In this document: positions 18,965 through 29,364 of the stretch, in pieces
Layout: every line of letters begins with the position of its first letter
Position numbering within the stretch: position 1 is the first letter of the stretch
DNA from: Sphaerotilus sp.
GTDB taxonomy: Bacteria > Pseudomonadota > Gammaproteobacteria > Burkholderiales > Burkholderiaceae_C
Assembly: GCF_031429695.1 (NCBI RefSeq)
Contig: NZ_JANPAB010000030.1
Location: forward strand, 32,569 to 96,568
Direction of reading: 5' to 3'
DNA: 64,000 bases
Notes under the pieces: generated by a model
Seen by the model: the letters and a program-made list of their open reading frames with translations, nothing else
What the model was told of the DNA's origin: nothing
Databases searched by the model: none
Position numbers and translations under genes: made by a program

Positions 18965-20035
18965 TCAGGAATTGCGCTGCTCCGCGCCCCGCAGCAGCTT
19001 GGCGGCGGTGGACATTTTCAGGACCACCTGCGACGGCATGAGGAAGGGGTAGCTGTCCGCCACGCCGATGCTCCGGTTGATGGCGTTCAGGAATTGCGCC
19101 ACGGGGAGCCACTGGAACAGCAGCAGATCGCTCCAGGACTGGGCGTAGAGCAGGTCCGCGGACGGCTGGGACGTGGCGACCGGACTGGACAGCGACAGTC
19201 CCCATGCCTGTGCCGTCTCGACCGCGTCCTGCACCAGCAGCACATGGGCGCAGGTCTCGGCCCAGTCCTCGTGGGGATGCGAGCTGGCGTAGACGCTGAT
19301 GTGGTGCTGGGCCCAGTCCGCCGGTGGACCGTCCGCGTGGTGACGGGCCAAGGCCTGACCATAGTCGGCCCGCTCGTCACCGAACACCTCGCGAAAGAGG
19401 CCGGTCGCTTCGCTGTCGGTCTCGATCCATCGGTACTGCAGGTAGTGGCTGGTTTCGTGGCGCACGTGACCCAGCAGAGTGCGCCAAGGCTCTCCGAAGT
19501 CGGACCGGACCGACTCGCGGTGCACGCTGTCGGCCTCGTCCAGGCTCAGGATGATCGTTCCACGGTCGTGACCCGTCATCACCGGCGGCTGGCACGGTTG
19601 AGACGCCAGGAAGTGGAAGGCCAGACCGAGACCGTCGCCGGGATCCTTCTTGGGCTCGGGCTTCAACCCGATCCGCAGGAGGCCATAGACCAGGCGGCGC
19701 TTGGCCTGCTCGTATTCGGCCCACATCTGGCGGTGACCCGCGACGCTCAGGTCCGGCCGCGTCAAGGTGAGCCGGCAACTCTGGCAGAGCTGTTGCGGAT
19801 CGTTGTCCGTGACCATCCAGTTGCAGGCGGAATACGCGAGGCGGGTGCGGCAGGGCTGCATCGGCGGGCCAGCGTCCCCCGGAAGCCGCCCCGGTACGTC
19901 AGGGACACCTGGCAGATCGAAGGCCATCATCTGCATGCCCACGGGGTCAAACCCCAGGGTGGCACCGCAGTTCAGGCACTCGGTGTTTTCGAAGAAGAGG
20001 CTGTGCTGGCACTTCGGGCAGGTGTAAGGGCGCAT
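18965..20035 (-). CDS. Putative zinc-binding metallopeptidase with N-terminal zinc ribbon
   Basis: CPKC/CLNC ribbon; EPWRTLLGHVRHETSHY (HExxH); HPHEDWAET. Confidence 0.85.
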   Translation of the reverse strand: MRPYTCPKCQHSLFFENTECLNCGATLGFDPVGMQMMAFDLPGVPDVPGRLPGDAGPPMQPCRTRLAYSACNWMVTDNDPQQLCQSCRLTLTRPDLSVAGHRQMWAEYEQAKRRLVYGLLRIGLKPEPKKDPGDGLGLAFHFLASQPCQPPVMTGHDRGTIILSLDEADSVHRESVRSDFGEPWRTLLGHVRHETSHYLQYRWIETDSEATGLFREVFGDERADYGQALARHHADGPPADWAQHHISVYASSHPHEDWAETCAHVLLVQDAVETAQAWGLSLSSPVATSQPSADLLYAQSWSDLLLFQWLPVAQFLNAINRSIGVADSYPFLMPSQVVLKMSTAAKLLRGAEQRNS

Positions 20036-22152: not shown

Positions 22153-24078
22153 TCAGCCCGCCCGCACCGCCAGCGCCTTCCCGATCCGATTCCGCCCCAC
22201 CGACGTTTTCGGCACCTTGACCTTGAGATGCCCGAACCACGCCCGCACGTCCTCGTCCAGCCCGATCCCGTGCATGTAGTTGTAGAGCGCCTTCTTCAGC
22301 CCCACGCCCAGCGCGTCGTGGTCGGTGCCGGTCGGGTCGATGAAGCCGACATCGTTCTGCGCGAAGGTCACCGGCGGCAGCGGGCGCAGCTTCACGCCGT
22401 ACTCCGCCGGGTTCAGCCCCACGGGGGAATGCACCGTGCAGGCGAAGCGGTGGAAAAACCCGCTCTGGATGCAGCCGTGTTCGAACAACTGGCGCACGTA
22501 CTCCAGCGCATCGACCGTGTCCTGCACCGTCTGCGTCGGGAAGCCGTACATCAGGTAGGCGTGGACCAGGATGCCCGCGTCGCTGAAGCCCTTGGTCACC
22601 CGCGCCACCTGATCGACCGAGACGCCCTTCTTCATCAGCGTCAGCAGCCGGTCGGACGCGACTTCCAGCCCGCCCGACATCGCGATGCAGCCGCTGTCGG
22701 CGAGTTCCTGGCACAGCTCGGGCGTGAAGGTCTTCTCGAAGCGGATGTTGCCCCACCACGAGATCTGCACGTCGCGGCGCTGCAGCTCGGCGGCCAGCGT
22801 CTTCAGCGCCTTGGGCGGCGCGGCCTCATCGACAAAGTGGAAGCCGGTCTGGCCGGTTTCGGCGACGATGGCCTCGATGCGGTCCACCAGCGTCTCGGCG
22901 GTGGCCGTCTCGTAGCGCGAGATGTAGTCCAGGCTCACGTCGCAGAAGCTGCACTTCTTCCAGTAGCAGCCATGCGCCACCGTCAGCTTGTTCCAGCGCC
23001 CGTCACTCCACAGCCGGTTCATCGGGTTGAGCATGTCGAGCAGCGACAGGTACTTGTCCAGCGGCAGGCCGTCCCAGGTCGGCGTACCCACCTCGGAGAA
23101 CGGCACGTCCGGCTCGACAAAGTTGATGTAGCGCACGAGGCCGGTGTCCGCGTCCCGCACGAAGGTGCGCACGAGGCGTTGCCGTGATCGCTTGCCGTTC
23201 AGATGCTCCAGCAGCGCCAGCAGCGGGCGCTCGCCGCTGTCGAGCATCACGTAGTCGATGTGGTCGAACACGCGCGGCTCGGCGAGTTCGCGCAGCTCCG
23301 TGTTGACGAAGCCGCCACCCAGGGCCACGACGATCGTCGGATCGACCGCCTTGACCGCCTGCGCAATCCGGAACGCCGCGTACACCGCCCCCGGAAACGG
23401 CACCGACAGCAGCACCAGCCGCGGCCGATGCCGCTCGACTGCCGCCTTGGTCAGCTCGGTCAGCACCTCGTCCATCAGATTCGGCGCGGCGGCCAGCGCG
23501 GCGGCCAGCGGCTCGAAGGTCGGCTGGCTGGTGGCGAGCGACTCGGCGTAGCGCACGAACTCGAAGCGTGGATCGACCGCGTCGCGCAGCACGTCGGCGA
23601 GGTCGTTCAGGTACAGCGTGGCCAGATGGCGCGCCTTGTCCTGCAGGCCGAGCGCGCCGAACGCCCAGGCCAGCGGGTCGCCACCGTCCTCGTCCACATA
23701 GACATCCAGCGTGCGGAACCGCGGCCCCTCGGGCAGGAAGGCGCGGCTGTTGATCCGGTGCGCCAGCGTTGCATCGCGGCCTTGGAGGAAGGCGATGACG
23801 CGGTCGATGGTCGCCACGTACCGGTCGAACTGCGCCATGAAGCTCTGCACCGGCTCGGTCGGTTGCGTTGGCGGCGCAGCCTCGACGCGCCGCCGGATTT
23901 CCAGCAACCCGCCCCGCGACAGCAGCCGCAGCACCAGCGCCAGCGCCAGATCCTCCTGCACCGCGTCCACCCCGCGCGAGCGCAGGAAGCCGGTCAGGTA
24001 GGCGGTGGACGGGTACGGGGTGTTGAGCTGGGTCATCGGCGGGATGACAGACAGCACGCGCAAGGGGGTATCGGGCAT
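22153..24078 (-). CDS. B12-binding-domain radical SAM protein
   Basis: CYWKKCSFC (CxxxCxxC), FHFVDEA, GLEVAS, YLMYGFP. Confidence 0.9.
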   Translation of the reverse strand: MPDTPLRVLSVIPPMTQLNTPYPSTAYLTGFLRSRGVDAVQEDLALALVLRLLSRGGLLEIRRRVEAAPPTQPTEPVQSFMAQFDRYVATIDRVIAFLQGRDATLAHRINSRAFLPEGPRFRTLDVYVDEDGGDPLAWAFGALGLQDKARHLATLYLNDLADVLRDAVDPRFEFVRYAESLATSQPTFEPLAAALAAAPNLMDEVLTELTKAAVERHRPRLVLLSVPFPGAVYAAFRIAQAVKAVDPTIVVALGGGFVNTELRELAEPRVFDHIDYVMLDSGERPLLALLEHLNGKRSRQRLVRTFVRDADTGLVRYINFVEPDVPFSEVGTPTWDGLPLDKYLSLLDMLNPMNRLWSDGRWNKLTVAHGCYWKKCSFCDVSLDYISRYETATAETLVDRIEAIVAETGQTGFHFVDEAAPPKALKTLAAELQRRDVQISWWGNIRFEKTFTPELCQELADSGCIAMSGGLEVASDRLLTLMKKGVSVDQVARVTKGFSDAGILVHAYLMYGFPTQTVQDTVDALEYVRQLFEHGCIQSGFFHRFACTVHSPVGLNPAEYGVKLRPLPPVTFAQNDVGFIDPTGTDHDALGVGLKKALYNYMHGIGLDEDVRAWFGHLKVKVPKTSVGRNRIGKALAVRAG

Positions 24079-24232
24079 GGCGCGGCTCGGGGTGCAAGCA
24101 GACGACTGGGGGCGTACATTTTGCCAGCCGCGCGCATGTCCTTTGAATGAAGGATGCCTCGCCGCGCGCACCCTTGACTTCATGGCGAGGTACGTCTATG
24201 AACCATGTGGTGCGACGACCAAGGAGCGCGAC

Positions 24233-25243
24233 ATGGCAATCACCGTGGGCAATGTGCAGAAACGCATCGGGCTGGCCTTGTCCGGCGGCGGATTCCGGGC
24301 TGCGGCGTTCCACCTGGGGGTGTTCCGGCAGTTGCAGACCCAGGGGTTGCTCTGGAAGCTGGATCTGCTGACCTGCGTCTCCGGTGGCAGCATCGCCGGC
24401 GCCTTCCTGTGCCGGCACTGGGGCGACGACAGCGCGCTCGATCGGCTGGAACAATACCTGCGCAGCGCATCCATCGCGGTGTCGTCTGTCCTTGGCGGGA
24501 TGTTGGACCCCTTCCATACCCGGCTGGACAAGCTGGCCGACACCTACGACCGCGACCTGTTCGGCGACTGCACGCTGAATGCGCTGTCCGCCGGCCCGCG
24601 CCTCTACCTGAACGCGACCAATCTGGCCACCGGCAACCTGTTCTCCTTCGTCACCGGTGGCGGCAAGCCAACCGAGATGGGTGAATGGGAGATGGGTTTC
24701 CAGCCCGCCGATGCCTTCCGGCTGAGCCGCGCGGTGGCCGCGTCATCGGCGTTTCCGCCGGTGTTCCCGCCGCTGCGGCTGGACCGGAGCGACTACCCGG
24801 CCGACGGCGCCGATTTCATCTGCCTGACCGACGGCGGCGTGTACGACAACCTCGGCGTCAACCCGCTGCTGCGCGACCGCAACGCGCTGGACTATGTGAT
24901 CGTCAGCGACGGCGGCAAGCCTTTCTCGATCGTCGAGCGGCCCACGGAGACCGGCAGCGCGGTGCTGGTCGAGGCCATCGACATCCTGATGGAGCAGGTG
25001 CGCGGTCTGCAATTCAGGCGGCTGGAGCTGGGCATGCACCTCGCGCACGGACCGAAGCCGGTGTGGTTCTCGATCGACAGCGCCATCGGACAGGCGCAGG
25101 ACGGGGACGCCGCGTTCGCCTCGGCGATCAGCACCAACCTGAAGCGCCTGTCCGCGCCGGAGATGGTGGTGCTGAAGCGGCATGCCGGGGCGCTGCTGAT
25201 GCACCGCCTGCTGAGCTACACGCCCGAGCTGCTCCATGCCTGA
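24233..25243 (+). CDS. Patatin-like phospholipase
   Basis: AAGGAG RBS at 24221-24226; LALSGGGFRA, CVSGGS, ASSAFP, LTDGGVYDN. Confidence 0.92.
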   Translation: MAITVGNVQKRIGLALSGGGFRAAAFHLGVFRQLQTQGLLWKLDLLTCVSGGSIAGAFLCRHWGDDSALDRLEQYLRSASIAVSSVLGGMLDPFHTRLDKLADTYDRDLFGDCTLNALSAGPRLYLNATNLATGNLFSFVTGGGKPTEMGEWEMGFQPADAFRLSRAVAASSAFPPVFPPLRLDRSDYPADGADFICLTDGGVYDNLGVNPLLRDRNALDYVIVSDGGKPFSIVERPTETGSAVLVEAIDILMEQVRGLQFRRLELGMHLAHGPKPVWFSIDSAIGQAQDGDAAFASAISTNLKRLSAPEMVVLKRHAGALLMHRLLSYTPELLHA

Positions 25244-27344
25244 CCGGCTCGGCCTCGACGCGCTGGCCCCGCTGCTCGGTCTGGTGGACACGGATCCGGA
25301 CCCGCAGGTCCGGCGCGTGGCGCTGGCGGTGGCCGCCCGTTTTCCGCTGGATGCGCAGGCCTGCGCCGAACTCGCCACCTACGGGCGCACGGTCGCGCCG
25401 TCCCCTGCGGTGCAGTCGCTGGACGCGGGCAGCGTGGCGGCCCGCATTCGCGCCGAGGTCGAGGTGATTCTGGACACACGCGACGTCGACGCCCGGCTGG
25501 CCTTGCTGTCCCGCCTCGGCCAGTACGGCGACCAGCTCAGCGGCCGCAAAGCCGGCGCGACACGGGGCATGCACCGCGGCGTGCGGGAGTCCGCGCACGA
25601 AGACCCGGGCGGTGCCCTGCCGGAGGAGCGTCGGGTGCAACTGCGCATCGTGCAGCAAGGGCACCGCCGCCGCACCTTCCTCGCCGGGGCGGCCCACGTC
25701 ATCCGCTGCTGGATCGGCCCACTGGAGGACGACGAGATTGCCGCCAACCAACCCATTCCGGATGTCGCCCTTCCGGCCGAAGGCCTGCGGCTGCAAGCCC
25801 AGCTGTACTGGCGCGACGGCCTCGGCAACGAGCACAGCGACAGCCAGTTCCTGCTGCTGCCCGCCGCGCGCGACGCCCGCAGCGGCGACTGCGACCTGCA
25901 CCTCACGGTACCGGAGGGCGAATCCTTCGTGGCGGCCGACATCGTGTTCCGCTACCGCGGGCGGATCTTCGAGGCGGTGCGGCTCGACGCGGCCGTGCTG
26001 GTCGCGGGCGAAACCGAGACGGCGGACCACCAAGTCCGGCTGCGGGTGCAGGCCAGCCGCCGCGAGGTGCTCGACATCGTCAACAGCCCCGCGGTCGACG
26101 GGACGCTGGTGCTGGATGCACCGCGATCGCCCTCGGCCGACCCCGGCGCCAGCCTGCTGCTGTTCGACGCCCACGGTGCCCATGCCGTCGACCTGGGTGG
26201 TTCGGCGACCGCGCTGCGCTGGCTGAACGACACGCTGCACCTGACCGAGACGGCCGTCGTGCGACGACAAGCCAGGTCGGGCTCGCCGGGCACTGAAGAA
26301 CTCGACGCCGACGACCCCGACGTCCTCGGCCTGCTGCGCACCTTGGCACGCCACGGCGCCAATCTCTGGAACCAGTTGCGTGACAACGGCTTCCGCGATC
26401 CCGGAGAGCGCCTGCAACTGCTCAACCGCACGCGCGACCACGTGCCACTCGAATTTGTCTACGACCGCGGCGTGCCGGCCGAGGACGCACGGCTGTGCGA
26501 CGGCTGGCGCGAGGCACTGCAGTCGGACACGGCGACCTGTCCGGTGTGCAGCCGCACGCCGTTGACGCAGGACCAGCGCGACAACGTCGCCACCCTGTGT
26601 CCATTGGGATTCTGGTCGTTGCAGAAGGTGATCGAGCGCATCGACCCGGACGCGCTCCCTGGGTCAGGGTCAGGCGCATCGGTGCCGACCGCGGCACGAC
26701 GCAGCCTGCGCCCGATCGACTCGGCGCTGTTCGCCTGCAGCGACAAGGTGCCCGAAGCCGAGCGCACCCGGCTGTGGGAGACGCTCACCCAGTGCGTGCC
26801 CCGCGCCGCGCGGGCCGCGGACTGGCCGCAGTGGAAGGCGGCGATGCAGGCAGATCCTGCACTGCTGCTGGTCCTGCCCCACCACGACACCGACCAGGGG
26901 CTGGACTACCTGGAGATCGGCGCCGACGGCCTGGCACATGCCCAGGCACGGCTCGGGCGCGAACAGCTCTCGCCCAGCTACATCAACCCCGACGCCACCG
27001 AACCCGGCCCGATCGTGTTGATGCTGGGTTGCCAGACAGCCACCGACACCGAGAACCCGACCGGCTACACCGACCTGACCCGCCGGGTGCAGCAGCAGCA
27101 CGCCGCCATCGTGCTCGGCACGCTGGCCAAGGTGCTCGGCCGCCACGCCGCACCGGTCGCGCAGGAGCTGGTCCGGCAGCTCGCCACGGTGCGCGATGGC
27201 GACACCGACTTCGGCACCGTGATGCGCCGGGTGCGCCGCCGCATGCTCGGGCGCGGCTACCTGATGGCCTTGTGCCTTGTCGCGCTGGGCGATGCGCAGT
27301 GGCGGCTGGCCCCGCTGCAAGCCGACACCACGCCCGCGCACTGA
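25236..27344 (+). CDS. Multidomain protein with a C-terminal CHAT/caspase-like domain
   Basis: Short helical HEAT-like N-terminus, beta-rich middle, CPLGFW, then LLLVLPHH...IVLMLGCQT...IVLGT matching the CHAT His/Cys strand pattern. Confidence 0.65.
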   Translation: MPDRLGLDALAPLLGLVDTDPDPQVRRVALAVAARFPLDAQACAELATYGRTVAPSPAVQSLDAGSVAARIRAEVEVILDTRDVDARLALLSRLGQYGDQLSGRKAGATRGMHRGVRESAHEDPGGALPEERRVQLRIVQQGHRRRTFLAGAAHVIRCWIGPLEDDEIAANQPIPDVALPAEGLRLQAQLYWRDGLGNEHSDSQFLLLPAARDARSGDCDLHLTVPEGESFVAADIVFRYRGRIFEAVRLDAAVLVAGETETADHQVRLRVQASRREVLDIVNSPAVDGTLVLDAPRSPSADPGASLLLFDAHGAHAVDLGGSATALRWLNDTLHLTETAVVRRQARSGSPGTEELDADDPDVLGLLRTLARHGANLWNQLRDNGFRDPGERLQLLNRTRDHVPLEFVYDRGVPAEDARLCDGWREALQSDTATCPVCSRTPLTQDQRDNVATLCPLGFWSLQKVIERIDPDALPGSGSGASVPTAARRSLRPIDSALFACSDKVPEAERTRLWETLTQCVPRAARAADWPQWKAAMQADPALLLVLPHHDTDQGLDYLEIGADGLAHAQARLGREQLSPSYINPDATEPGPIVLMLGCQTATDTENPTGYTDLTRRVQQQHAAIVLGTLAKVLGRHAAPVAQELVRQLATVRDGDTDFGTVMRRVRRRMLGRGYLMALCLVALGDAQWRLAPLQADTTPAH

Positions 27345-27358
27345 ACCAGGAGTCCCCC

Positions 27359-28567
27359 ATGTTCCGCATCGAAATGCTGCCCGCCGCCCACGGCGACTGC
27401 CTGTGGATCGAGCATGGCGACGCGGCCCACCCCCGGCGCCTGCTGATCGACGGCGGGCCGAGCCGCACCTACGCCGCCCTGCGCGCCAGGGTGCTGCAGG
27501 TACCCACTGCGGAGCGGCGCTTCGATGCACTGGTCATCACGCACATCGACGCCGACCACATCGAAGGCGTGGTCCGCCTGCTGCAGGATGCCGAAGCGCT
27601 GGGCTGCACCTTCGACCGGATCTGGTTCAACGGCCGCGACCAGCTCGACCAGGTGCCGGACCCCGCCGGCCAACCGCTGGGCGCCCTGCAGGGTGAACTG
27701 CTCGGCCTGCTCATCGCCGACTACGAACGCCGCACCGGCACCACGGTCTGGAATGTCGGCTGGCCCGACCGGCTGGCGGCGATCGACCGGGCAGACGGAC
27801 GCCTGCCCAGCGTCGATTTCGGACCGGGCGGGTGCCGGCTGACGCTGCTGTCGCCCGACCACCGCCGCCTGCTCGCACTGAAGGACACCTGGCGCAGGGC
27901 GCTGGAGGAAGCCGGCATCGCGTCCGGCGACGAAACCGCCTTGCGCCTGCGGCTGGCGGCCTCGCCCCACCTTCGACCGCTCGGTGATGGGCTGGGCGCG
28001 GATGGCGCAGGGCCGGAAACGGTGGAAGAACCACCAGTCGCCGCCCCGGAGGCCGAACTGGATGACGCGCTGGGCGGCGCGGGTGAAGCCGGCTCCGCCT
28101 TCGGCAGCGATGCCAGCGAAGCCAACGGCAGCAGCATCGCGCTGTTGCTGGAATACCCCAGCGAGCGCCCCACCGTGCGCCTGCTGCTGGCTGGCGACGC
28201 CTGGGCCTCGGTGCTGGAGGCCTCGATCGGCTGCCTGTCGTCGTCCGCGCACGGCGAGCGTCTCACGCTCACTGGCTTCAAGCTGCCGCACCACGGCAGC
28301 GTGCGCAATCTCACCGCGAAGTTGCTGCGCGCCATCGACAGCGCACGCTATCTCGTGTCGACCAGCGGCGCCGTGTTCGGCCACCCGAACGCCCGGGCCA
28401 TCGACCTGGTGCTGGCCGAACACCCTGGCCCGGCGGCACCGCAACTGCTGTTCAATTACCGGCGTGCGACCACCACGCCGTGGGCTGCGCCCGAGCGGCA
28501 GCAGGCCGAGCACTTCGTGGCCATCTACCCGCCGGCCGCAGCGCAGCCGACCGTGCTGGCGCTGTAA
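27359..28567 (+). CDS. MBL-fold metallohydrolase (ComEC/Avs1a-like)
   Basis: AGGAG RBS; MLPAAHGDC, LIDGG, THIDADHIEG, NGSSIA, LAGDA, KLPHHGS. Confidence 0.88.
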   Translation: MFRIEMLPAAHGDCLWIEHGDAAHPRRLLIDGGPSRTYAALRARVLQVPTAERRFDALVITHIDADHIEGVVRLLQDAEALGCTFDRIWFNGRDQLDQVPDPAGQPLGALQGELLGLLIADYERRTGTTVWNVGWPDRLAAIDRADGRLPSVDFGPGGCRLTLLSPDHRRLLALKDTWRRALEEAGIASGDETALRLRLAASPHLRPLGDGLGADGAGPETVEEPPVAAPEAELDDALGGAGEAGSAFGSDASEANGSSIALLLEYPSERPTVRLLLAGDAWASVLEASIGCLSSSAHGERLTLTGFKLPHHGSVRNLTAKLLRAIDSARYLVSTSGAVFGHPNARAIDLVLAEHPGPAAPQLLFNYRRATTTPWAAPERQQAEHFVAIYPPAAAQPTVLAL

Positions 28568-28578
28568 AGCAGCCGGAC

Positions 28579-29364
28579 TCAGACGCTCGGGATCACTCCA
28601 CCGTCGACACGAACCACCGACCCGGTCACGTACGACGCCCGCGCGCTCGCCAGAAACGCGACCACATCCGCGTATTCCTGCACATCGCCCACACGCCCCA
28701 TCGGGATCGCCGCGGTGCTGTCGGCCTGCACCTGCGCAAGATCCTTGCCCTGCCGCTGCGCGGCCATCTCGTCGAGGAACTGGATGCGGTCGGTGGCGAT
28801 GCGGCCGGGCACGACGATGTTGGCGGTGATGCCGTCACGCGCCACTTCGCGGGCCAGCGTCTTCGACCAGCCCACCAGCGACAGCCGCAGCGCGTTCGAC
28901 ATCGCCAGGTTCGCGATCGGCGCGACCACGCCCGACGAGGTGCTGGTGACGATGCGGCCCCAGCGCTGCGTGCGCATGCCGGGCAGCACGCGGTCCGTCA
29001 CCGCGATCACGCTCAGCACCATCGCCTGGAACTGCGCCAGCCAGCGCTCGGGCGACTGGCCGGCGGCCGTGCTCGGGGGCGGTCCCCCGGTGTTGTTGAC
29101 CAGGATCTCGACCGGACCGAAACGCGCCTCGATCTCGGCGATGTTCGGTTCGATCTGCGCCAGATCGGCCAGATCCCAGGTGAGCGCCAGCGCCTGGCCT
29201 CCGGCGGACTCGATCTCGGCCACGAGGGTGGTCAGCCGGTCCGTGCGCCGGGCCGCCACGGCCACGCGGGCGCCCTCGGCAGCCAGTGTGCGGGCGATGG
29301 CCGCGCCGAGCCCGCTGCTGGCGCCCAGCACGAGCGCCGTCTTGTTCTTCAGTCCCAGATCCAT
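28579..29364 (-). CDS. SDR oxidoreductase
   Basis: [20 protein letters not shown]. Confidence 0.9.

Follow-up and report, generated by a model that had tools for sequence, protein, structure and literature searches.

A patatin, a predicted CHAT-fold protease and a ComEC-like metallo-β-lactamase form a candidate Canu-like cassette in Sphaerotilus

Three papers of 2025 described 'pro-nucleases' of the metallo-β-lactamase (MBL) fold that become active once a genetically linked protease has cut them (PMC12799240; PMC12642450; bioRxiv 10.1101/2025.09.03.673762). Loci in which the partner is a caspase were named canu, with KaeCanABC of Klebsiella aerogenes as the prototype (Science 2025, PMC12799240). 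Defence by KaeCanABC against T4 requires the caspase cysteine, the nuclease histidine, and the loop glycines G104 and G189, and CanAB turns CanC into a nuclease in vitro (PMC12799240). Figure S2 of that paper includes a 'caspase-/CHAT-' associated nuclease clade, whose loci are called variable, and another of the studies reports both an MBL clade adjoining caspase-like proteases and a lipase-like alpha/beta-hydrolase of Lysobacter capsici, a zymogen that a caspase-like protease activates by two cuts (PMC12642450). None of the three papers mentions a patatin, and our literature searches turned up no patatin-CHAT-MBL system elsewhere. Here, we analyse a cassette of three genes in a stretch of 64,000 nucleotides of Sphaerotilus sp. 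(contig NZ_JANPAB010000030.1 of assembly GCF_031429695.1), which we call the window. The cassette encodes a patatin-like phospholipase (gene 1), a large multidomain protein that we predict to be a cysteine protease (gene 2), and an MBL-fold protein (gene 3). With a probability of about 0.65, we read it as a Canu-like anti-phage cassette, in which a protease-gated nuclease would act by abortive infection.

An original prediction, made from the letters of the window, had described three tightly coupled genes between unrelated housekeeping genes, an intact patatin with the motifs GGGFR, SGG, and DGG, a CHAT-like His/Cys pattern in gene 2, and an MBL protein with HxDxDH. All of this was recovered here. 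It had also noted that no cyclase or STAND nucleoside triphosphatase (NTPase) is visible, and Pfam and PADLOC scans of the trio and its flanks found none.

The MBL protein is homologous to the nuclease of Canu. In BLASTP comparisons with the KaeCanABC sequences, taken from Table S1 of PMC12799240, it aligns with KaeCanC over the full length (31% identity, E 1e-47), and its bit score with KaeCanC (154) is higher than with the trypsin-partnered HamM (114) or LmuA-H (99). PADLOC matches it to effector models of Lamassu (LmuA PDLC03854, 3e-56), of the defence-associated reverse transcriptases (DRT; RTasMBL, 2e-39), and to the Avs1a effector model (2e-35), and the NCBIfam Avs1a model gives it 165 bits against a cut-off of 420. 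The motif HxDxDH reads H62-I-D-A-D-H67 and is complemented by H311-H312. Judged in 24 orthologues, down to 38% identity, the metal-binding residues (H62, D64, D66, H67, D280, H311, H312, and H342) are all invariant. The AlphaFold2 (AF2) model, with a predicted local distance difference test (pLDDT) of 82, has the MBL nuclease domain of ComEC (9ic4) as its top Foldseek match.

Two loops of this model stand apart. Residues 99–107 and 211–252 are its only disordered parts (pLDDT < 50). In the same orthologues G108, L212, and G213 are invariant and L107 is nearly so, within loops that vary in length and sequence. The glycines of KaeCanC that are needed for defence have counterparts there: G104 aligns with G108 in both BLASTP and MAFFT, and G189 aligns with G213 in the MAFFT multiple alignment but with the neighbouring G209 in the pairwise BLASTP. 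The forms of the MBL protein with a long loop have one more conserved motif, D-x-L-G, which follows a variable acidic insert (its glycine is G239 in the window) and thus suggests that the insert is excised. Judging from the alignments and the model, the MBL protein carries the hallmarks of a protease-gated pro-nuclease.

Some relatives have broken MBL genes. In a Dechloromonas metagenome-assembled genome (MAG), the gene is interrupted by about 2.2 kb that include, by eye, HIT-family, pfkB-kinase, and lipoprotein genes, as well as ambiguous bases (L019:12243-14455); either the nuclease has been inactivated by a rearrangement or the interruption comes from the assembly. In two MAGs whose isolate names begin with 'MFD', the frame is broken by a shift of one or two bases (L004:12000-12080 and L014:12051-12053), which could reflect sequencing errors or decayed copies.

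The second gene is a sequence orphan. It has no match in Pfam (even at E ≤ 1), NCBIfam, or PADLOC v2, and neither phmmer nor hmmsearch against the sequences of the PDB gave a protease or CHAT match. All profile, BLASTP, and hhalign comparisons aimed at a CHAT/caspase identity were negative, and the fold is seen in the predicted structure only. The AF2 model, built on 26 homologues, has a pLDDT of 84 and a predicted template-modelling score (pTM) of 0.75. When it was compared with the PDB by Foldseek, Csx29, the TPR-CHAT protein of Craspase, came on top (E 5e-9), followed by separases, gingipain R, and the CHAT anti-sigma factor DdvA, down to an E-value of 4e-5 and all with a probability of 1.0. 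The model thus points to a caspase/CHAT (clan CD) fold for the protein.

Conservation across the family is highest in the predicted catalytic region (Table 1), and the weakest relatives match there only. Among the 26 relatives, which are 42–82% identical, His549/550 and Gly598-Cys599-x-Thr601 are invariant. The histidine comes before the cysteine and each follows a beta-strand, which in the model is the placement of a clan-CD dyad. The cysteine lies in LMLGCQT, which we take to resemble the CHAT motif 'LSACxT'. A cluster of four cysteines, also invariant in this alignment, is probably a structural site that would bind zinc. Upstream of the catalytic region, an all-beta Ig-like sandwich has partial Foldseek matches to Asf1, the carbohydrate-binding domain of Wzt, and Vps26, and a disordered linker (aa 105–126) separates it from a helical HEAT-like module at the N-terminus. 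The family profile matches HEAT/alphaRep repeats (E 4e-6), and the module of the window protein is a short form of the N-terminal HEAT region of about 470 aa found in most relatives.

The protease family is large and variable at its N-terminus. Gene 2 has 131 close homologues, and a profile search retrieved 1816 clusters at 50% identity, 1045 of them with E ≤ 1e-30. Most relatives have about 1000–1050 aa and share a core that corresponds to window residues ~130–702; the window protein and its congeners represent a conserved short form of about 700–735 aa. The N-terminus is a swappable module, which can be a long or short HEAT region, a TIR/SEFIR domain, or an HU domain. The TIR/SEFIR domain takes the place of the HEAT module in a metagenomic variant (protein P0113, L058:256-2574) and the HU-type DNA-binding domain does so in a Lysobacterales MAG (related protein P0115, L018:3913-6114); both keep the Ig-like and CHAT core and the downstream MBL gene. 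In a genome from another family of the same order (G030, L052:1504-3585), a 32%-identical protease gene has an in-frame TGA and is followed by an intact-looking MBL gene.

The association of these genes extends to distant genomes. Two peptide patterns were run against 185,579 species genomes and matched 48 loci, a lower bound, in Pseudomonadota, Chloroflexota, Acidobacteriota, Actinomycetota, and Bacteroidota. The MBL gene adjoins the protease gene in essentially all of these loci where the contig permits the check. It lies directly downstream in all but one, an Acidimicrobiia locus (L042) where the two genes are divergent. An arrangement that turns up, as the pair or as the whole trio, at 48 loci outside the window goes far beyond what chance would give. 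The pairing spans six phyla in all, and it is also found in the 32%-identical relative, in the variant fused to TIR/SEFIR, and in megaplasmids of Mycobacterium and Cupriavidus, which are mobilizable or conjugative. The proteases of these plasmids are 27–31% identical, and RefSeq labels both them and their MBL partners 'hypothetical protein'. The pair of the Mycobacterium sp. JS623 plasmid pMYCSM01 (L060:3633-7137) is near a 'caspase family protein' and a WD40 protein, and that of the Cupriavidus basilensis plasmid pRK1-1 (L061:3372-7003) is beside an IS3 transposase and a PIN-domain gene.

Lipase genes are frequent in these loci. We counted them in the 38 loci with enough flanking sequence and found one linked in 30, either a patatin (23 loci) or a Tle1-like alpha/beta-hydrolase of the DUF2235 family (PF09994; 7 loci). 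The patatin gene is usually just upstream of the protease gene (downstream in two loci), and the Tle1-like gene is often divergently transcribed. Given these counts and the presence of two families, we regard the protease and the MBL as the conserved core and the lipase as a frequent, exchangeable companion. In four gammaproteobacterial loci, of Woeseiaceae and relatives, the MBL gene is followed by a gene for a protein of about 1010–1030 aa (L027:12705-15794, L028:8424-11456, L029:4402-7386, and L035:10905-13994). This protein has a canonical Pfam CHAT domain at the C-terminus (E 3e-38) and an unrecognised N-terminus of about 700 aa. It is possible that these loci hold two clan-CD proteases in a two-tier cascade.

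The patatin itself is unambiguous. Gene 1 matches the Pfam family PF01734 with 75 bits for a cut-off of 27.7 (E 1.2e-20). It has the oxyanion motif G18-G-G-F-R22, the nucleophile S53 in VSGGS, and D200-G-G, all conserved in 23 orthologues, and its nucleophile elbow reads GGSIA instead of GxSxG. The PADLOC model of phospholipase effectors matches it marginally (E 0.0026). In 23 other loci, a patatin gene whose product is 71–90% identical to gene 1 adjoins the protease gene, and the patatin is the most conserved protein of the trio, the protease of the same loci being about 50% identical. The patatin has one weak candidate for a cut site, a conserved loop at aa 147–155 (E-M-G-E-W-E-(L/M)-G) that is similar to the Leu/Met-Gly sites in the nuclease.

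The cassette is rare and moves horizontally, with a patchy distribution. It is present in 3 of the 25 genomes of the genus and in 2 of the 301 genomes of the order. Within the genus, the site between the genes of a radical S-adenosylmethionine (radical-SAM) protein and a short-chain dehydrogenase/reductase (SDR) is polymorphic (window positions 24063–28577). In one congener (G011, L054:6836-6841), these two genes abut exactly where the window has the 4.5-kb cassette, i.e., the site is empty. In another (G004, L056:4493-6294), the site holds a different gene of 1.8 kb, which by eye encodes an alpha/beta-hydrolase fused to a C-terminal region that looks methyltransferase-like. In a third (G018, L053), the cassette is present and has different neighbours downstream; these look by eye like a lipid-metabolism cluster and include another patatin-like gene (L053:2539-3699). 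The tree of the MBL proteins has sequences of Chloroflexota, Acidobacteriota, and Bacteroidota nested among the proteobacterial ones. We found no marks of mobile elements at the boundaries of the insertion (a chance repeat of 7 bp aside). The window has no tRNA, the annotated genes on either flank include neither a transposase nor an integrase, and the phage genomes searched gave no homologue.

The three genes evolve under purifying selection, as their ratios of nonsynonymous to synonymous substitution rates (dN/dS) between congeners show: 0.16–0.17 for the patatin, 0.33–0.36 for the protease, which is the fastest-evolving of the trio, and 0.24–0.28 for the MBL. The synonymous divergence (dS) between the window and its congeners is 0.38–0.56 for the cassette and 0.19–0.22 for the adjacent radical-SAM gene. 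This difference of about twofold hints at a separate history of the cassette, e.g., recombination or transfer.

In the mechanism that we propose, gene 2 would be both sensor and initiator, with its HEAT-like module, its Ig-like sandwich, and a protease of caspase/CHAT fold that uses the dyad His549(/550)-Cys599. Gene 3 would be a ComEC-like MBL deoxyribonuclease (DNase) that is made inactive, its two disordered loops blocking the active site. Infection would activate the protease, probably by a change in the N-terminal modules driven by a ligand or by oligomerisation. The protease would then cut the loops after Leu-Gly, at G108 and at G213 (or the neighbouring G209), and perhaps also at G239, which would excise the acidic insert. 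The freed DNase would degrade DNA and stop the infected cell. The patatin (Ser53-Asp200) would be a linked second effector that attacks membrane lipids and that may also be licensed by the protease. We infer the activity and specificity of the protease, the trigger, the DNase activity, the defence phenotype, and any cleavage of the lipase in the window trio. The licensing of the patatin is favoured by its tight coupling to the protease gene and by the fact that sister loci have lipases of an unrelated family in its stead, considered with the alpha/beta-hydrolase zymogen of the literature; that the protease activates the lipase is nevertheless pure conjecture. An extended version, in which one CHAT-fold protease licenses a DNase and a membrane lipase together and the swappable HEAT, TIR/SEFIR, and HU modules set the infection cue, is tentative and on balance doubtful.

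The original prediction had proposed that the large protein senses a trigger and activates a lipase and/or nuclease by proteolysis. The nuclease half of this idea is strengthened by the caspase fold, which the structure search returned (Csx29, separase, gingipain, and DdvA), by the co-occurrence of the pair or trio in the 48 loci, and by the hallmarks of the MBL; the lipase half is not supported. Several observations count against the Canu-like reading. The caspase/CHAT assignment of gene 2 is drawn from the predicted structure only: the Pfam CHAT profile (PF12770) does not match the protein, its family profile aligns with the canonical CHAT proteins of the sister loci with a probability of 0.1% in hhalign, and the template-modelling scores (TM-scores) are about 0.3 over the whole chain. 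BLASTP finds no similarity between gene 2 and CanA, and BLASTP and tblastn find no homologue of CanB in the window or in any related locus, although the fused HEAT and Ig modules may substitute for it. In an MBL tree with KaeCanC, HamM, and LmuA-H, KaeCanC groups with the clade of the window with weak support (76/95) and long branches, and we have not taken this tree as a main argument. Furthermore, KaeCanABC has been validated by experiment, whereas the window family is known from sequences and predicted structures.

Further points against it concern the lipase and the genomic context. The protease-MBL core occurs in several lineages without any lipase. With 199 residues matched to 190 positions of the Pfam model, the patatin lacks any insertion in that domain, and it has no obvious gating loop, which leaves its proteolytic licensing unsupported; a search for a convincing gating insertion or cut site in both the patatin and the Tle1-like lipases found none. 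As to enrichment in defence islands, which the original prediction had suggested to survey, we took the 120 genes nearest to the cassette in 32 related loci, and PADLOC gave scattered matches among them, several of them generic, with single matches to NsnC, AriA, mad3/8, and others. The immediate neighbours are mostly housekeeping genes. We consider the enrichment weak, and the scan neither strongly supports nor refutes a role in defence. In a Thauera-like locus that lacks a lipase (L033:5609-7717), genes with AbiTii and P63C domains precede the protease gene by about 1.7 kb, in a neighbourhood of defence or prophage type.

The absence of a gating loop from the patatin raises the question of whether the lipase is a substrate at all. 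With the same protease-nuclease core, it could act upstream or in parallel, e.g., as a sensor of membrane damage or lipids, as a regulator of the protease, or as an effector that the HEAT module holds and that is regulated independently. The strong conservation of the patatin (71–90% identity where the protease has about 50%, and a dN/dS of 0.16) fits this view, as do the often divergent, and thus not co-operonic, Tle1-like replacements and the absence of any lipase from 8 of the 38 informative loci, which makes it dispensable for the core. However, a different, lipase-like alpha/beta-hydrolase has been proven to be a zymogen that a caspase-like protease activates (PMC12642450), interchangeable effectors, rather than a specific sensor, would be expected to swap between two unrelated lipase families, and the overlap of 8 bp couples the patatin translationally to the protease in the window. 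We consider a non-substrate lipase rather unlikely. It is more improbable still that the cassette serves regulated self-destruction or conflict between bacteria, such as death linked to stress or development or toxins aimed at competitors, instead of defence against phages. Both the Tle1-like (PF09994) and the patatin family have known members that are secreted as type VI effectors, and the Tle1-like domain occurs in sister loci; moreover, the window flanks are not a defence island and defence genes are sparse near the related loci. Against this, features of secretion, VgrG/PAAR, immunity, or signal peptides are absent beside the genes, pro-enzyme logic suits intracellular suicide, and the variants fused to TIR/SEFIR and neighbours such as AbiTii point to immunity. 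The MBL family has also been shown to act in phage defence (PMC12799240).

That no sequence model recognises a peptidase in gene 2 would be explained if the protein were a non-catalytic scaffold or pseudo-protease, with the MBL controlled by binding or sequestration, and some relatives in clan CD are indeed pseudo-enzymes. This is very improbable in view of the invariant His and Cys at canonical positions after beta-strands and of the Leu-Gly residues that stay invariant within variable, disordered MBL loops, which are hard to explain without cleavage. Finally, the nearest solved fold of the MBL is a competence nuclease, ComEC, and the cassette of G018 lies beside a cluster that resembles lipid metabolism, as if housekeeping enzymes of lipid turnover and ComEC-like DNA processing had been co-located. 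We give this hardly any credence: the cassette occurs in so few congeners and genomes of the order (3/25 and 2/301), its presence or absence at the site is precisely polymorphic, the MBL tree mixes phyla, and relatives are borne by plasmids. The Canu-like reading, with a protease-gated nuclease at its core, remains the one that we prefer.

The features of the locus are given in Table 1. The start of gene 2 overlaps the stop of the patatin gene by 8 bp, and gene 3 follows gene 2 after a gap of 14 bp. The GC content at third codon positions (GC3) is 0.90, 0.88, and 0.87 in genes 1, 2, and 3 (69% GC in the window overall), and we therefore regard the long antisense open reading frames (ORFs) at the locus as artefacts of high GC. 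We also considered that genes 1 and 2 could be a single gene split by a frameshift, as their 336 and 702 aa add up to approximately the 1040 aa of most homologues. This was rejected because the long homologues start with HEAT repeats, not with a patatin, and have a separate patatin gene upstream. The flanking genes are ordinary housekeeping genes, and the locus of the window is not in a defence island: beyond the radical-SAM and SDR genes, there is a CHASE3 histidine kinase farther upstream, and a PRK-family kinase and a GAF-HK-REC-EAL protein farther downstream. A gene at 18965–20035 on the minus strand, 4 kb upstream of the cassette, encodes a putative zinc metallopeptidase (Peptidase_Mx, E 8e-81) that has a zinc-ribbon domain at its N-terminus; we saw nothing that ties it to the cassette.

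Table 1. Features of the cassette and its flanks, in window coordinates. Residue numbers are those of the respective protein, and a slash marks a candidate cut.
Feature	Position	Strand	Basis
B12-binding radical-SAM gene, upstream flank	22153–24081	-	
Shine-Dalgarno AAGGAG, 7 nt 5' of the patatin start codon	24221–24226	+	Sequence read directly
Gene 1, patatin-like phospholipase, 336 aa	24233–25243	+	ORF and Pfam
Gene 2, predicted multidomain cysteine protease of caspase/CHAT (clan CD) fold, 702 aa	25236–27344	+	ORF and AF2/Foldseek
Gene 2, helical HEAT-like N-terminal module, aa 1–104	25236–25547	+	Helices in AF2 model
Gene 2, all-beta Ig-like sandwich domain, aa 131–320	25626–26195	+	Strands 133–319 in AF2 model
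Gene 2, helical and predicted caspase/CHAT-fold catalytic region, aa 321–702	26196–27344	+	Foldseek
Gene 2, four-cysteine cluster C421, C435-P-x-C438, C455	26496–26600	+	Invariant in 26-sequence alignment
Gene 2, His549-His550 codons, predicted catalytic His (LPHHD), after strand 543–547	26880–26885	+	
Gene 2, Cys599 codon, predicted catalytic Cys (LMLGCQT), after strand 593–596	27030–27032	+	
Shine-Dalgarno AGGAG ahead of the MBL gene	27348–27352	+	Sequence read directly
Gene 3, predicted ComEC-like MBL-fold pro-nuclease, 402 aa	27359–28567	+	ORF, PADLOC, BLASTP, AF2
Gene 3, predicted gating loop 1, aa 97–108, ending in Q-P-L-G108/A (candidate cleavage site)	27647–27682	+	
Gene 3, predicted gating loop 2, aa 205–252: P-L-G209-D-G-L-G213/A, variable acidic insert, D-A-L-G239	27971–28114	+	
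SDR gene, downstream flank	28579–29364	-	

The original prediction had called the system undescribed, and this is true in part. Neither the protease nor the trio is recognised by PADLOC v2, NCBIfam, or Pfam. Among described systems, the kind, Canu-like, is matched, but not this exact arrangement. However, the system is not categorically new, because protease-gated MBL nucleases, including a caspase-/CHAT-associated clade, have been in the literature since 2025. What is new is a large, sequence-orphan family of CHAT-fold proteases, as predicted, with a HEAT-Ig architecture, the lack of CanB, a recurrent and exchangeable lipase partner with a putative role as effector, and specific predicted cut sites.

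It was only in 2025 that latent nucleases opened by proteolysis became known from bacterial immunity, and KaeCanABC is the sole tested example with a caspase partner. The window family pairs the same pro-nuclease with a structurally different protease, predicted to have a CHAT fold, that forms about 1000 clusters at 50% identity in metagenomes, carries no annotation beyond 'hypothetical protein', and escapes Pfam, NCBIfam, and PADLOC. Profiles for this protease in the tools that search for defence systems would uncover many unannotated systems. The predictions are cheap to test, as they name the catalytic residues and the Leu-Gly cut sites at G108 and G213. If a single caspase-like enzyme does fire both a DNase and a lipase, this would be a closer parallel to the multi-substrate executioner caspases of eukaryotes, and the patatin (with the Tle1-like hydrolases of sister loci) would be a new class of protease-controlled zymogen.

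Among the known systems, the trypsin-MBL modules of Hachiman (HamMAB), AVAST types 1 and 2, Lamassu, and DRT have an MBL of the same superfamily and the same logic, predicted here, of unlocking a DNase by proteolysis at two sites. Their protease is a trypsin-like serine protease, whereas that of the window is a cysteine protease of predicted caspase fold, and, unlike them, the cassette has no STAND NTPase, helicase, SMC, or reverse-transcriptase sensor. In particular, Pfam and PADLOC show no NTPase or trypsin domain of AVAST type 1 in the three genes or their flanks, there is no LmuB/SMC partner as in Lamassu, and genes 1 and 2 have no PADLOC match to LmuB. The cyclic-oligonucleotide-based antiphage signalling systems (CBASS) with CapV also have a patatin phospholipase as death effector in a defence operon, which is the role predicted here, but Pfam and PADLOC reveal no cyclase in the cassette or its neighbours and no nucleotide-sensing domain. 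Craspase, the type III-E effector that joins gRAMP with TPR-CHAT (Csx29), is the best structural match of the protease, and in both proteins a CHAT-fold protease, as predicted for the window, comes after a helical-repeat module. The repeats are TPR in Craspase and HEAT in the window, where the predicted substrate is a nuclease zymogen. Pfam and PADLOC found no Cas/CRISPR family in the three genes or their flanks; CRISPR repeats, gRAMP, Csx30, and Csx31 were not specifically searched.

The pair of Lysobacter capsici (PMC12642450) likewise joins a caspase-like protease with a lipase-like hydrolase, and 7 sister loci of the window have a Tle1-like alpha/beta-hydrolase in place of the patatin. The hydrolase of Lysobacter (LcHydrolase) has an alpha/beta fold and is cut after Arg, whereas the lipase of the window has a patatin fold with no visible gating insert, and the cuts predicted in the cassette follow Leu-Gly. 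The comparison with Canu shows differences in the partners of the nuclease: CanA is a MALT1-like paracaspase of 390 aa, the window protease, with 702 aa (usually about 1000 in its relatives), is modelled as CHAT/separase-like with N-terminal HEAT repeats, and the cassette has a linked lipase gene and no CanB. The two systems share an MBL homologous to CanC, with the motifs HxDxDH and HH and two disordered insertions whose conserved glycines align, a nuclease gene directly downstream of the gene of a (predicted, in the window) clan-CD cysteine protease, and an Ig-like domain associated with the protease.

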